Shown piece by piece: positions 17,265 through 36,346 of a stretch of DNA of 64,000 nucleotides. Origin of the DNA: Burkholderiales bacterium. GTDB taxonomy: Bacteria; Pseudomonadota; Gammaproteobacteria; Burkholderiales; SG8-39. The notes beneath the pieces were generated by a model. It searched no databases. It was given only the letters and a program-made list of their open reading frames with translations, and was not told the origin of the DNA. Each line of letters opens with the position of its first letter. Within the stretch, counting starts at the first letter, position 1. The DNA lies in NCBI GenBank assembly GCA_046347635.1, contig JAXMFT010000001.1, forward strand, positions 4,658-68,657. Direction: 5' to 3'. A program made the translations under genes and the position numbers.

Positions 17265-18374
17265 GTGGTCCTGGGCCGCTGGCTGAGGCGAGGCGCGCGC
17301 GCGCCGGGCGACGGCGCCTTCGTCGCGTTTCTCACCCACTCCGCGGAAGTGCAGCCGGTCAACGCGGGCGAGCGCCTGTTCGCCGACACGGCGAGCACGC
17401 GCCTGCGCGTCCTCATTCCCGCGGCCGAGCTCGCCCGGCGCGTGCCGGTGCGGCTCGTGCCGCTCGCACGGTTCCTCGCCGACCCGAGCCTGCGCGCGCT
17501 CGGCGCGCCGCGGGCGGTGGTCATCGCCAAGCTCGCGGCCGGCGCCGTCGCGGCGATGGAACGCGAGCTGACCGCGCTCCTCGACGCGGTCGCCGCCGGG
17601 CGCTGCCCGGCGCCGGTGTTCGCCGACCTCTCGGACGACTACGCCGCGCTCGCCGACGCGCTGCGGGCGCCGTTCCTCGCCGAGTACCAGCGCCGGCTCG
17701 CCGAGCACTGCGCGCTGACCGTGCCGTGCGCCGCGCTGCGCGACGCGCTCGCGCCGCTCGCGGCGCGCGGCGTCGAGGTCATCGAGGATCCCTACGAGTC
17801 GGACGCGGCGCAGCCGGTACGCACGCGCGCGGACGATCCGCCGGCGCTGTGCTGGTTCGGGACCCTCGGCGCCCCGAATGCGGACGACCTGCGCGAGACG
17901 CTGAGCACGCTCGCCCGGACGATGGGCGACGGCGGCGGGCGCGTCGAGCTCGTCGCCGGCGAGGCCGCGCGCGCGGTCGGAACCGCGATCGCGGCCGCCG
18001 TCGCGGCCGCGAACCCGCGCTGGTCGGTCGCGTACACCGTCTGGTCGCCGGAGAGCGCGGCCGCGGCGATCGCGCGCAGCGACTTCGTCCTCCTGCCGCA
18101 GGCGCACGCGACGCCGTGGGGGCGCGTGAAGTCGCACAACCGCCTGGTGGAGACGATCCGCGCGGGCCGGCTCGCGCTCGCCTCCCCGATCCCGTCGTAT
18201 CTCGAGCTCGCCGAATACGCCTGGGTCGGCGAACCGCTCGCCGAAGGCTTGCGCTGGGCGCTCGCGCACCCGGAGGAGGCCGCGGCGCGCGTCGCGCGCG
18301 GCCAGGCGCACGTCGCAAAGCGCTTCGCGCCGGAGGCGATCGGGGCGCGCTGGGCGCAGGTGCTCGGGGTGTGA
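17265..18374 (+). CDS. Hypothetical protein with GT-B-like (GT1/GT4-type) C-terminal half
   Basis: GC3-rich 369-aa ORF. The C-terminal ..GRVKSHNRLVETIRAGRLALASPIPSYLEL.. resembles the nucleotide-sugar-binding half of GT-B transferases. The start (GTG 17265) is uncertain. Confidence 0.45.
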   Translation: MVLGRWLRRGARAPGDGAFVAFLTHSAEVQPVNAGERLFADTASTRLRVLIPAAELARRVPVRLVPLARFLADPSLRALGAPRAVVIAKLAAGAVAAMERELTALLDAVAAGRCPAPVFADLSDDYAALADALRAPFLAEYQRRLAEHCALTVPCAALRDALAPLAARGVEVIEDPYESDAAQPVRTRADDPPALCWFGTLGAPNADDLRETLSTLARTMGDGGGRVELVAGEAARAVGTAIAAAVAAANPRWSVAYTVWSPESAAAAIARSDFVLLPQAHATPWGRVKSHNRLVETIRAGRLALASPIPSYLELAEYAWVGEPLAEGLRWALAHPEEAAARVARGQAHVAKRFAPEAIGARWAQVLGV

Positions 18375-18401
18375 CGCGGCGCGCGCCGCGGGACCGCCGC
18401 G

Positions 18402-19004
18402 TCAGGTGCCCGCGGGCGCGTCTTGGAGCGGCAGGCCGAGGAGCTGGCGCTGCGCCGGCGACGGCGGGGTCTTGAAGGCGAGCGCGCGCAGCTCGTAGGG
18501 CCCGTACGGCCCCGCATTCCACACGTCGGCAAAGCCGGCCGCGAGCAGCGCTTCGCCGAGCGACTTGTGGCTGAAACCGGTCTTGTGCGCGAAGAAGTCG
18601 TTGCCGCTGCGCTCGATCTCGGGGCTCCAGCCGTAGATGACGTCGATCACCGGGATCGGCCCGCTCGGCGCCTCGTACAGCACGTCGTCGAGGTCCAGCC
18701 CGTCGTCGAGCATCCTGCGAAACACCGCCGGCATGTCCGGCACGCGGATCTCGGCGAAGCCCTCCGCCTTCAGCACGTGGAGGAAGCCGGCGAGGACCTT
18801 CGGCACGTCGTGCCGGTAGTAGTGCTCGAGGTTGTGCGAGCAGTAGACTGCGTCGAACTGGCCCGGGGCGAGCGTGCCGAGCGCGCGCGCGTCGCACACC
18901 ACGTCGGCGCCGCGCCGCGGGTCGATGTCGAGCAGGAGATGGTCCCAGCCGGCGTAATGCGGCGGGATCGGGATGGTCTTGGTGCTGCCGCCGACGTTGA
19001 GCAC
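18402..19004 (-). CDS. Class I SAM-dependent methyltransferase
   Basis: The coding part of ORF 18402..19778 begins about GTG 19004 (or TTG 19010): VLNVGGS motif I, ..DAVYCSHNLEHY... The start is uncertain. Confidence 0.65.
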   Translation of the reverse strand: MLNVGGSTKTIPIPPHYAGWDHLLLDIDPRRGADVVCDARALGTLAPGQFDAVYCSHNLEHYYRHDVPKVLAGFLHVLKAEGFAEIRVPDMPAVFRRMLDDGLDLDDVLYEAPSGPIPVIDVIYGWSPEIERSGNDFFAHKTGFSHKSLGEALLAAGFADVWNAGPYGPYELRALAFKTPPSPAQRQLLGLPLQDAPAGT

Positions 19005-34712: not shown

Positions 34713-34723
34713 GGCTGCGGACG

Positions 34724-36346
34724 CTACGCGGCGGCGGCCAGGTCGCGCCGCATGGCCTCCACCACCGGCGCCCAGCTGCCGCCGTGCGTTTGGCGAAAGA
34801 GACGGACCCCCGGATACCAGGGCATGCGCTCCCCGCGCATCCCGTAACGCCACTCGGGCACCCGCGGCGTCGCCACCCACACCGGCCGCCCGAGCGCGCC
34901 GCCGAGGTGGACGATGGCCGTGCACACCGAGACGATGCCGTCCAGCGCCGCGGCGAGCGCGGCGGTCTCGTCGTAGTCGTCGACCGCTTCCGGCCAGTGG
35001 TGCACCCGGATCCCGGTCGCCGCGACGAAGCGCGCGACTTCCGCCTGGGCGTCCGGGCCGTACTGCAGGCTCACGCAGTGGAGTCCGGGCAGGGCGAGCA
35101 CCGGGGCGAACTCGTCGAGCGTGAGCGAGCGCCGCTCCGTGCGCGTGCGCGGCGTGCCCCCGCGCCACGACACCCCGATGGCGCGCCCGGGGCCGAGCGC
35201 GCGCAGGCGCCCGCGCCAGCGCTCCACGCTCGCCGCGTCGGCGCGCAGATACGCCGTCGGCGGCGGGAAGTCGCCCTCCTCGCGCCGCAGGTGCAGGGGC
35301 AGGCTTCCGACCGCGATCTGCACGTCGATGCCGAGCGGCGCCGCCCAGTCGACCGGGTCGCTCTGCAGCCCCGCGTGCACCGTGGCCGACGGAAACGAGC
35401 GCGCGAAGATCGGGGCGAGCTTCGGCGCGCAGTCGACGACGCAGCGCTTCGCCCGCGCGATCACCTGCGGCAGGCAGGAGGCGAACAGGATCTCGTCGCC
35501 GATGCCCTGCTCCGCGTGCACCAGGATCGTCCTGCCGCCGAGGTCCTCGCCCTGCCAGCGCGGGAACGGGAAGGCGCGGCGCGGACGGTCTTCCGATGCA
35601 AGCCGCAGCTCGTAGTCGGGCCACGCCGCGCCGAAGCGCCCGAGCGTGAGCAGCGTCGTCGCGCGATGGAAGCGGGCGAGCACGTGCGCGGGCGCCGCCG
35701 CGAGCGCCGCGTCGTACGCCGCGAGGGCGTCGTCGAAACGGCCGCTCTCGTGCAGCGCGACGCCGTACGCGGCCAGCGTGTCCGCGTCGCGGCGCCCGAG
35801 CGCGAGCGCGCGCTCGAGGTGCTCGAGGGCGGGCGCGCAGTCGAACGACCCGCGCAGGTGCAGCCGGCCGAGCGCCGCGTGCGCCTGGGCGTGATCGGGG
35901 TGGCGCTCCACGATCGCGCGCACGAGCGCGATGTCCGCATGCGGGACCGCGTCGCCCGGCAGCCATCCGACGAGCCCTTCGAGCGCGGGCGCCGACCAGG
36001 CGTCCGCGCGCAGCGCGGCCCGGAAGCCCTCGAGCGCCGCCGTCCGGTCGCCGGCGCGCGCGCGCAGCAGTGCGCGGTTCGCGAGCGCGGCCGCGTGGCC
36101 GGGCGCCTGGGCGAGCGCCGCCTCGTAGCAGCGCTCGGCCTGCCCGTCCGCGCCGAGCAGCAGGTGGACGTTGCCGAGGTCGGAGTGGGCGTCGGGCGAC
36201 GCGGGGTCGAGGGCGAGTGCGCGCTCGAGGAGGGCGCGCGCGTCCTGCAGGTCGCCCGAGCGCACCGCCTCCTGCGCGCGCTGCCGCAGCGTGCGGACCT
36301 CCTCCGCGCCGCCAGCGCGCACCCGGTTCAGCAGCGCGCGCAGCAT
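34724..36346 (-). CDS. TPR-repeat / GT9-like glycosyltransferase
   Basis: 540 aa, N-terminus MLRALLNRVRAGG. ILVHAEQGIGDEILFASCLPQV .. GVSWRGG .. CTAIVHLGGALG .. PEWRY. Confidence 0.75.
   Translation of the reverse strand: MLRALLNRVRAGGAEEVRTLRQRAQEAVRSGDLQDARALLERALALDPASPDAHSDLGNVHLLLGADGQAERCYEAALAQAPGHAAALANRALLRARAGDRTAALEGFRAALRADAWSAPALEGLVGWLPGDAVPHADIALVRAIVERHPDHAQAHAALGRLHLRGSFDCAPALEHLERALALGRRDADTLAAYGVALHESGRFDDALAAYDAALAAAPAHVLARFHRATTLLTLGRFGAAWPDYELRLASEDRPRRAFPFPRWQGEDLGGRTILVHAEQGIGDEILFASCLPQVIARAKRCVVDCAPKLAPIFARSFPSATVHAGLQSDPVDWAAPLGIDVQIAVGSLPLHLRREEGDFPPPTAYLRADAASVERWRGRLRALGPGRAIGVSWRGGTPRTRTERRSLTLDEFAPVLALPGLHCVSLQYGPDAQAEVARFVAATGIRVHHWPEAVDDYDETAALAAALDGIVSVCTAIVHLGGALGRPVWVATPRVPEWRYGMRGERMPWYPGVRLFRQTHGGSWAPVVEAMRRDLAAAA

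Follow-up and report, generated by a model that had tools for sequence, protein, structure and literature searches.

Textbook glycosylation of proteobacterial pilins relies on oligosaccharyltransferases that act on lipid-linked glycans. The enzymes of this kind encoded beside pilA, such as TfpO (PilO) and TfpW in Pseudomonas and PglL in Neisseria, Acinetobacter, and Ralstonia, are polytopic membrane oligosaccharyltransferases or GT-C glycosyltransferases that work in the periplasm, and in Pseudomonas-type loci, pilin alleles at one chromosomal site are accompanied by allele-specific accessory genes. Where it has been well studied, proteobacterial pilin glycosylation is periplasmic (PMC7591256). 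Cytoplasmic systems have been described for other filaments and lineages. In the cyanobacterium Synechococcus elongatus, the tetratricopeptide repeat (TPR) protein Ogt (Synpcc7942_0051), a cytoplasmic member of glycosyltransferase (GT) family 41 that lacks a secretion signal, is required for glycosylation of PilA with N-acetylglucosamine (GlcNAc) as well as for normal piliation; its catalytic lysine, K445, is essential, and in 38% of the cyanobacterial genomes, ogt has pilin genes as its neighbors (PMC9306852). OgtA of Nostoc punctiforme is cited in the same paper. In FlmG of Caulobacter and Brevundimonas, a TPR domain binds the filament subunit and a GT-B domain sets the donor, and the protein works in the cytoplasm without an oligosaccharyltransferase (PMC7591256; bioRxiv 10.1101/2022.03.25.485807). 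Here, we analyze a 64-kb stretch of DNA from a Burkholderiales bacterium (contig JAXMFT010000001.1; hereafter the window), in which a type IVa pilin gene, pilA, is embedded in an island of 14 genes (G1 to G14, 17265-36346) rich in TPR-fused transferases. The locus is best explained as a hypervariable pilin-modification island, and our best reading is that its enzymes would carry out oligosaccharyltransferase-independent, TPR-guided O-glycosylation of the pilin in the cytoplasm.

The island resembles the Ogt-PilA system in that a TPR-GT41 protein without an export signal is encoded beside the pilin gene. This gene, G9, starts 112 bp past the stop codon of pilA (G10), i.e., in the "tfpO position" noted by a previous reading of the window (hereafter the sequence-only reading), and its catalytic lysine is conserved. 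That reading had also taken pilin glycosylation by enzymes of these families to be undescribed, which is wrong for GT41 given S. elongatus Ogt (PMC9306852). The two systems differ in scale and setting. The cyanobacterial case involves a single GT41 enzyme, whereas the island has four GT41, three TPR-GT9-like, one GT61, and one GT8-like transferase together with methyltransferases. Moreover, the present locus belongs to a different phylum (Beta-/Gammaproteobacteria), the constant partner of the pilin is GT9-like, and the function of the island is a predicted one. The likeness to FlmG is one of architecture, with an N-terminal TPR array and a C-terminal GT-B domain. However, the FlmG acceptor is a flagellin that passes through a type III channel, whereas the candidate acceptor of the island enzymes is a type IV pilin, whose export route is the inner membrane, and flagellin was found in only one of 78 related loci. 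In that locus (L076, 7052-10837; Planctomycetota QQVP01000029, a metagenome-assembled genome or MAG), a flagellin gene is followed, about 570 bp downstream, by a TPR-GT9-like homolog, which hints that the filament subunit with which the GT9-like family can be paired varies between phyla. In a literature search, which was incomplete, we found no report of proteobacterial pilin glycosylation linked to TPR transferases in a multi-paralog island, nor of a TPR-fused GT9-like family as a constant pilin partner with a conserved GT8-like companion. Both the proteobacterial multi-paralog island and its GT9-like partner thus look undescribed.

The linkage between TPR transferases and pilin genes was examined across genomes. 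Related loci were located through the GT9-like domain of G14, using one genome per GTDB species. This yielded 76 loci, all from MAGs, of which the best (75% identity) is in a betaproteobacterial MAG; with L001 and L002 added, the set comprises 78 loci. In tblastn searches of the 76 loci with the 14 island proteins and flagellin, a pilin with an N-terminal match to G10 was found in 43 loci and a flagellin in one (L076), which settles in favor of pilA the question, raised in the sequence-only reading, of whether these paralogs travel with pilin or flagellin genes. In 32 loci, a TPR-GT9-like gene precedes the pilin gene on the same strand and is separated from the pilin start by 115-544 bp (median 286 bp), which is the arrangement of G11 and pilA in the window. 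Two or three tandem pilin copies are present in 19 loci. GT41 genes occur in 22 of the 78 loci and are absent from the minimal islands, and nine of 14 loci with GT41 have a GT41 gene no more than 540 bp from a pilin gene. The partner most tightly linked to the pilin is therefore the TPR-GT9-like gene directly upstream and not a GT41 gene, which corrects the place given to GT41 in the sequence-only reading. Among the contexts fetched through homologs of G14 or G12 (L001, L002, L079/L080, L081, L163, and L164), all six have a prepilin-type gene beside TPR genes (five with a Pilin match and L081 with an N_methyl match only), and the gene order in L079 and L163 is almost the same as in the window.

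Flagellin linkage of the island was rejected as an alternative. When FliC N- and C-terminal domain sequences were used as queries in tblastn searches, flagellin was found in one of the 78 loci (again L076) and in none of 80 pilin-centered loci. No flagellar family is present among the Pfam-scanned genes of the window, which itself was not searched with the FliC queries.

About 30 of the related loci occupy the same chromosomal position as the window, between a block encoding a PilB-like ATPase and an HD-GYP protein on one side and soxB on the other. The islands at this shared site are hypervariable, ranging from 4.5 to 19.6 kb and containing one to four TPR-GT9-like genes, up to two GT41 genes (four in the window), at most one G12-like gene, and one or two pilin genes. 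None of the eight islands captured in full between HD-GYP and soxB lacks a pilin gene or a TPR-GT9-like gene, and the smallest of these (L052, 4.5 kb) consists of such a pair alone. Compared with the closest relative, L079, protein identity is 94-98% in the flanks, 92% for G12, 77% for the pilin, 76% for G11, and 68% for the GT41 protein beside pilA. The pilin and its immediate neighbors diverge faster than the flanks. Two Methylococcus MAGs (L005 and L040) also show the pairing, without these flanks.

At the site shared with the window, four loci have a quite different pilin type, located at about 11-13 kb in L026, L042, and L052 and at about 4.7 kb in L029, and still adjoining TPR-GT9-like genes. 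These loci resemble the situation in Pseudomonas, where pilins fall into allele groups with their own accessory genes.

As a reverse test, 80 metagenome loci were fetched through the pilin. The closest pilins on contigs with enough flanking sequence (L083, L086, and L088) have a TPR-GT9-like gene directly upstream. Among more distant pilins (43-50% identity), one to three TPR-GT41 genes flank the pilin in L102, L105, L108, and L112, and a TPR-GT9-like gene does so in L128. Most other loci fetched in this way have no TPR transferase beside the pilin. Taken together, these patterns indicate that the linkage between type IVa pilins and TPR transferases is recurrent and specific, not universal, and that the arrangement occurs far more often than chance would produce.

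The constant partner of the pilin could be related to GT9 through its predicted fold. The PF01075 (GT9) scores of G11, G13, and G14 (10.8, 15.5, and 12.1 bits) are below the cut-off of 22 bits and always concern profile positions 175-215, and searches of the C-terminal domain of about 295 aa against NCBIfam and PDB sequences returned no match; full-length queries were swamped by TPR matches. An AlphaFold model of the C-terminal domain of G14, built on 18 homologs, has a predicted local distance difference test score (pLDDT) of 90.5 and a GT-B fold with both Rossmann lobes intact. The best Foldseek match of this model is WaaF (1psw; E = 1.5e-8, template modeling or TM score of 0.64), followed by WaaC, the GT9 structure 3tov, and the GT9-like protein heptosyltransferase TibC, and the heptosyltransferase neighbors span E values of 1.5e-8 to 1e-5 with TM scores up to 0.64. 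The three proteins, which the sequence-only reading had called TPR-GT9, would thus deserve this name by modeled fold and not by sequence-family criteria. Although the bacterial autotransporter heptosyltransferases (TibC and Aah) and the lipopolysaccharide heptosyltransferases WaaC/WaaF (GT9) are the best structural neighbors, their sequence identity to the G14 domain is 11-15%, and these enzymes have no TPR fusion. In a 2014 study by Lu et al. (cited in PMC7591256), TibC is reported to act in the cytoplasm, where it glycosylates a secreted protein ahead of its export.

Approximately 40 columns are invariant over the 18 GT9-like homologs. These include EQGxGD, which we take to be at the position of the catalytic Gly-Asp (D13) of WaaC. 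The stretch aligned with the C-terminal nucleotide-sugar motif of GT9 reads SVCTA(I/V)VHL in G13 and G14 and AVCSATVHL in G11. At this motif position, WaaC presumably has an Asp (D261), and SVCTA(I/V)VHL has no Asp. Relatives of the G14 domain number in the hundreds, and most of them have a TPR fusion and derive from metagenomes of Burkholderiales and other Betaproteobacteria. A profile that spans the TPR and GT9-like regions (A1) gave 891,164 matches at E <= 0.001 in a library of 50%-identity representatives, a number that cannot be used to size the GT9-like family because the profile kept TPR columns. This profile is matched best by proteins about 1000-3100 aa long, in each of which 3-12 stretches align and the top stretch spans nearly the entire profile; these are either giant multi-module transferases or fused calls of tandem paralog arrays. 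Furthermore, the TPR/GT9-like junction GDFxxGWDDYExR (about 268-285 in G11; A1 positions 150-163) aligns with the DWTDYDERMKK junction of human OGT. Since these junctions align, the TPR-transferase linker may be common to GT41 and GT9-like fusions.

The four TPR-GT41 genes counted in the sequence-only reading are confirmed by PF13844, for which the gathering score is 25 bits (G4, 63.5; G5, 201.4; G8, 186.3; and G9, 154.6 bits). Several TPR families are matched in G5, G8, and G9, and the TPR signal of G4 is weak. The best PDB matches of G8 are a bacterial OGT homolog (5djs, E = 2e-85) and Arabidopsis SPINDLY (E = 1.6e-79), both ranking above human OGT. The catalytic His of DFxxH and the Lys of FNxLxK (H190 and K357 in G8 numbering) are invariant in all four paralogs, so the loss of catalytic residues, which the sequence-only reading named as a ground for refuting its proposal, does not apply to the GT41-like domains. 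K357 of G8 is aligned with the Lys of the SPINDLY motif FGSFNNLAK; we take it to be equivalent to K842 of human OGT and assume that it also corresponds to K445 of S. elongatus Ogt.

As written, G9 is disrupted. Its 5' end and start codon lie within a near-perfect tandem duplication of about 630 bp (28763-29282 vs. 29390-29930), which creates apparent frameshifts. The copies are equal at 519 of 520 aligned bases (541 columns with 21 gaps and one mismatch), and the 13 short indels between them are all deletions in the lower copy. Because the copies differ by 13 short deletions and a single mismatch, the duplication most likely is an assembly or consensus artifact and not biology. The possibility that G9 is a natural pseudogene was rejected for the same reason and because this position in L163 is occupied by two GT41 genes that are intact (554 and 549 aa).

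The pilin gene matches both PF00114 (Pilin) and PF07963 (N_methyl). Its product has a prepilin leader with G-1, F+1, and E+5, and the C-terminal cysteine pair (Cys116 and Cys128) is invariant in 16 homologs. G10 therefore combines the features of a type IVa pilin, namely a leader ending in Gly, a hydrophobic alpha1-N helix, a Pilin domain, and a C-terminal disulfide pair. The description of this gene as a lone pilin gene holds for structural genes, since no further pilus structural gene was found among the Pfam-scanned genes of the 64-kb window, but a PilB-like ATPase gene, which is a conserved neighbor, lies 8 kb away. A sigma-54-type sequence (TGGCAY-N5-TTGC) is present once in the 64 kb, upstream of pilA, compared with 0.1 matches expected by chance. 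A sigma-54 promoter as a family-wide trait was rejected, since a strict match is present upstream of only eight of 61 related pilins.

The island enzymes appear to lack any route out of the cytoplasm. In a hydropathy scan of the 13 non-pilin island proteins, neither signal peptides nor transmembrane segments were seen; the maximum 19-residue hydropathy is 2.14 or lower in all of them, and the top segments fall within the GT-B core. Based on Pfam, the 14 island genes include no Wzy_C or GT-C oligosaccharyltransferase, no flippase, and no initiating transferase, and thus nothing comparable to TfpO, TfpW, or PglL. Genes for a lipid-carrier pathway are also absent from the 14, as are genes for nucleotide-sugar synthesis. 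Given the latter absence, the donors would be housekeeping nucleotide sugars.

The recurrent pairing of pilins with TPR transferases in dozens of uncultured proteobacteria suggests that the enzymes probably decorate the pilus subunit, and we assign a rough probability of 0.55 to the pilin being the acceptor of at least some of the island enzymes. From the gene content, the families and fold, the catalytic residues, the lack of export signals, and the conserved adjacency to pilin observed here, we infer an acceptor, a cellular site, the sugars, and an order of steps as follows. The TPR domains would recognize the pilin in the way that the FlmG TPR domain recognizes flagellin. The attached GT9-like and GT41 domains would then use nucleotide sugars to place the first sugars on Ser/Thr residues of the globular part of the pilin, and this would take place in the cytoplasm, prior to insertion into the membrane or in the course of it, and would involve neither a lipid carrier nor an oligosaccharyltransferase. 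The untethered enzymes (GT8-like G12, GT61 G7, G6, and G1) would extend the glycan, and the methyltransferases G2 and G3 would methylate it. In this scheme, the TPR-GT9-like gene and the pilin would form the core unit, and GT41, GT61, and methyltransferase genes would be strain-variable add-ons. Such variation between strains would fit diversifying pressure on a surface filament, e.g., from pilus-specific phages.

Several points weigh against the pilin as acceptor. The most serious problem is topological. After insertion, the globular domain of the pilin is periplasmic and only the leader faces the cytoplasm; the cleaved leader (MQRIQKG) has no Ser/Thr, and modification must therefore precede or accompany insertion. 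The same difficulty applies to the cyanobacterial Ogt-PilA case. HMW1C and the autotransporter heptosyltransferases modify exported substrates before export. The composition of the pilin is of little help. Ser/Thr residues make up 23% of mature G10, whose C-terminal half was described as Thr/Ser-rich in the sequence-only reading. The globular parts of GT-linked pilins have 27% Ser+Thr compared with 23% in unlinked relatives, a small enrichment that barely discriminates. In addition, pilA is predicted to be its own transcription unit, with a sigma-54-like promoter motif and a terminator-like hairpin. The related loci are not independent observations because many occupy one chromosomal position, and all relatives found are MAGs or metagenome contigs. 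Finally, exceptions to the pairing were found in both directions. Locus L090 has a fairly close pilin and no transferase within 8 kb, and at least 18 long TPR-GT9-like loci have no pilin within 10 kb. Several of these pilin-less loci end at the edge of the fetched region while the transferase array is still running, and true lone TPR-GT9-like paralogs exist as well (e.g., L059). Overall, the previous proposal that the island is built around the pilin as its substrate is supported by the linkage, the catalytic residues, and the lack of an oligosaccharyltransferase in the island. It passes all of the refutation tests named in the sequence-only reading that sequence analysis can address, with the corrections given above on Ser/Thr content and GT41.

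Among the alternatives, the one that survives best is that the transferases act on other proteins, either components of type IV pilus machinery or signaling such as the PilB-like ATPase or a broad range of cytoplasmic targets modified in an O-GlcNAc or O-fucose manner, and that the pilin gene merely shares a recombination-prone locus with them. GT41 enzymes such as OGT and SPY classically regulate many intracellular proteins, and G8 is closest to a bacterial OGT homolog and SPINDLY. The island enzymes are all predicted to be cytoplasmic and the mature pilin is not, pilA has a promoter motif and a terminator of its own, and the island abuts a conserved block encoding GAF-HD-GYP, GAF-MshEN-T2SSE, cyclic nucleotide monophosphate (cNMP)-binding/rhodanese, phosphodiesterase, and cyclase proteins. 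However, a merely shared locus would not readily account for an adjacency that is gene-to-gene and on the same strand, with the short median gap given above, or for a minimal island that holds nothing but the pilin and a TPR-GT9-like gene. The pairing also persists where the signaling block is missing (L005, L040, and metagenome loci). Moreover, the paralogs change in number and sequence along with the pilin allele, but the signaling genes remain 94-98% conserved. We therefore regard targets other than the pilin as unlikely to explain the island.

Still less probable is that the island makes a glycan that is not attached to protein in the cytoplasm, i.e., a lipopolysaccharide (LPS) core, an O-antigen-like glycan, or an exopolysaccharide (EPS), or a lipid-linked oligosaccharide that is moved to the pilin by a PglL/TfpO-type enzyme encoded elsewhere. 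GT9 and GT8 are classical LPS-core families, and some database entries for homologs bear names such as "ADP-heptose:LPS heptosyltransferase" and "lipopolysaccharide biosynthesis glycosyltransferase." The periplasmic location of all well-studied proteobacterial pilin glycosylation (PMC7591256) also favors this explanation. Nevertheless, sequence membership in GT9 and GT8 is sub-threshold, and seven of the transferases have TPR arrays of the protein-binding kind, for which an LPS or EPS enzyme has no need. The island also has no initiating phosphoglycosyltransferase, flippase, polymerase, ligase, or oligosaccharyltransferase and, apart from the pilin, no membrane protein of any kind, and the homolog in L076 (Planctomycetota) adjoins the gene for flagellin, a substrate that is modified in the cytoplasm. 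It is very improbable that the TPR-GT9-like proteins only look like transferases and, being catalytically dead, serve the pilin as chaperones or assembly factors: their scores are under the Pfam GT9 threshold and their C-terminal motifs (both versions given above) lack the Asp presumed for WaaC, but the GT-B model is confident with both lobes intact, EQGxGD (at the presumed Gly-Asp site of WaaC) is among the roughly 40 invariant columns, and the genes co-occur with bona fide transferases and methyltransferases.

Another feature of the island is a short N-terminal peptide, ML(K/R/L)xL(L/I)xx, that is shared by six genes from three enzyme classes, namely the GT9-like G14 and G11, the GT41 genes G9, G8, and G4, and the methyltransferase gene G3. 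The corresponding starts, all on the minus strand, are at 36346, 32362, 29885 (with a duplicate at 29242), 27636, 21892, and 19933. In a six-frame scan of the 64 kb, the motif was found nine times, with seven occurrences at start codons, two inside G9, and none outside the island. About one-third of the full-length TPR-GT9-like homologs from elsewhere begin alike, e.g., MLKNLLGYLWARAWRA, as read from their N-termini. This peptide could be a shared docking helix or an amphipathic membrane-binding helix.

Glycosylation of the pilin by the island enzymes, as preferred above, can be extended to a broader and more tentative proposal, whose parts jointly have somewhat less than even odds. In many uncultured Beta- and Gammaproteobacteria, the type IVa major pilin may receive its glycans in the cytoplasm and independently of any oligosaccharyltransferase, from arrays of enzymes that each combine a TPR pilin-recognition module with a catalytic module. 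The core would be a previously unrecognized GT9-like family, possibly protein heptosyltransferases related to TibC, and GT41, GT61, GT8-like, and methyltransferase genes would serve as strain-variable extensions. Docking through the ML(K/R)xLL peptide would bring the enzymes to a shared site, e.g., the membrane face where the prepilin is inserted, and the island would co-diversify with the pilin allele. If true, proteobacteria would have a second and mechanistically different pilin pathway that is cytoplasmic, TPR-guided, and multi-enzyme, and the single cyanobacterial GT41 example would be extended to a large environmental clade. The large unannotated TPR-GT9-like family and the conserved 230-aa GT8-like protein would gain their first functional context. 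It would also sharpen the question of how cytoplasmic enzymes glycosylate a membrane-inserted protein that faces the periplasm. The series of 4.5-19.6 kb islands at one site, combined with the modular TPR-transferase design, would offer a convenient system in which to study specificity for acceptor and donor as well as surface variation driven by phages.

The coordinates of the island genes and associated features are listed in Table 1. The G+C content of the window is about 72%, which makes raw lists of open reading frames (ORFs) useless. The gene calls were therefore built on third-position GC content (GC3) with start codons checked, and this procedure gave exactly 14 genes in 17265-36346, the same number as in the sequence-only reading.

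Table 1. Genes of the pilin island, regulatory signals around pilA, and two conserved neighboring genes (positions in the window).
Feature	Position	Strand	Basis
G1, 369 aa, possible GT-B-like transferase	17265..18374	+	Glyco_trans_1_2 below cut-off
G2, S-adenosylmethionine (SAM) methyltransferase	18402..19010	-	PF08241 Methyltransf_11
G3, SAM methyltransferase, N-terminal MLKSLLRN peptide	19022..19933	-	PF13578 Methyltransf_24
G4, divergent TPR-GT41	20027..21892	-	PF13844
G5, TPR-GT41	22070..24097	+	PF13844 and TPR array
G6, 202 aa, possible small GT-A, DTD motif	24117..24725	-	Nucleotid_trans, E = 0.06 only
G7, GT61 / DUF563 transferase	24722..26014	-	PF04577
G8, TPR-GT41, SPY/OGT-like	26011..27636	-	PF13844, PDB matches
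G9, TPR-GT41 directly 3' of pilA, 5' part broken by tandem duplication	27636..29885	-	PF13844
Intrinsic terminator-like hairpin and T-run after pilA	29948..29977	-	13-pair stem, then TTTTTTG
G10 (pilA), type IVa major-pilin-type prepilin, 136 aa	29998..30408	-	PF00114 and PF07963
Sigma-54-type promoter motif TGGCATGGCCCTTGC	30468..30482	-	60-74 nt upstream of pilA ATG
G11, TPR and GT9-like GT-B domain, directly upstream of pilA	30650..32362	-	TPR array; C-domain homologous to that of G14
G12, 230 aa, GT8-like transferase, DCD motif, most conserved island gene	32393..33085	-	Sub-threshold GT8
G13, TPR and GT9-like GT-B domain	33096..34712	-	TPR, sub-threshold PF01075, homology
G14, TPR and GT9-like GT-B domain	34724..36346	-	AlphaFold model of residues 246-540, Foldseek
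GAF-HD-GYP, conserved neighbor	36840-38540	-	Pfam
GAF-MshEN-T2SSE PilB-like ATPase, conserved neighbor	38554-40911	-	Pfam

The remaining island enzymes differ in how firmly they can be classified. One GT61 protein and two SAM methyltransferases were expected from the sequence-only reading, and all three have Pfam support (G7, 81.4 bits for PF04577 with a cut-off of 27; G2, 26.5 bits for Methyltransf_11 with a cut-off of 21.2; and G3, 41.7 bits for Methyltransf_24). The two small GT-A proteins and one GT-B-like protein proposed in the same reading are weak calls. G12 scores 14.8 bits (E = 0.022) with GT8 (PF01501), below the cut-off of 24.3 bits, although all 25 of its homologs examined match GT8, also sub-threshold, with a best E value of 1.6e-5. 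G6 has no better match than the E value in Table 1, and a counterpart of 205 aa follows the GT61 gene in L079 and L163. G1 scores 20.8 bits with Glyco_trans_1_2 (cut-off of 25 bits); its homologs are found in the pilin islands L005, L036, L038, L068, and L081, and several of these adjoin a G2-like methyltransferase gene.

G12 is better conserved than its neighbors. G12-like genes are present in 37 of the 78 loci with 66-82% identity, compared with 35-55% for the neighboring transferases in the same loci, and the database contains more than 8000 relatives at E < 1e-5, the top 120 of which have 76-94% identity. G12 has no curated family, a profile search against PDB was empty, and an AlphaFold model based on a shallow alignment was unusable (pLDDT of 38.6).

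The soxYZAXB sulfur-oxidation cluster borders the island upstream (13142-17251, plus strand), with soxB conserved as the right-hand flank of many related loci. The host probably belongs to a sulfur-oxidizing, high-GC, uncultured Burkholderiales lineage, and its relatives include the MAG "SG8_39." On the other side, a conserved block on the minus strand (36840-45208) encodes a GAF-HD-GYP protein, the GAF-MshEN-T2SSE PilB-like ATPase, a cNMP-binding/rhodanese protein, a class II phosphodiesterase, and a CHASE2 adenylate/guanylate cyclase. This block, including the genes for GAF-HD-GYP and the PilB-like ATPase, adjoins the island in about 30 related loci, and the ATPase encoded 8 kb from pilA is a putative cyclic di-GMP (c-di-GMP)-responsive pilus ATPase. 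The composition of this block suggests that cyclic-nucleotide control of a pilus ATPase is linked to the pilin locus. Beyond the block, the window contains FHA, PP2C, and CHASE2-Ser/Thr-kinase genes.

Between G14 and the HD-GYP gene, an ORF called at 36451-36852 (plus strand) was rejected as Arg-rich junk in the wrong frame. The real conserved gene in this interval is at 36464-36817 on the plus strand, opposite to its neighbors; it encodes 117 aa (MGLFSLFSNKEINAF...), has no Pfam match, and has counterparts of 116-117 aa in L079, L080, L081, L163, and L164.

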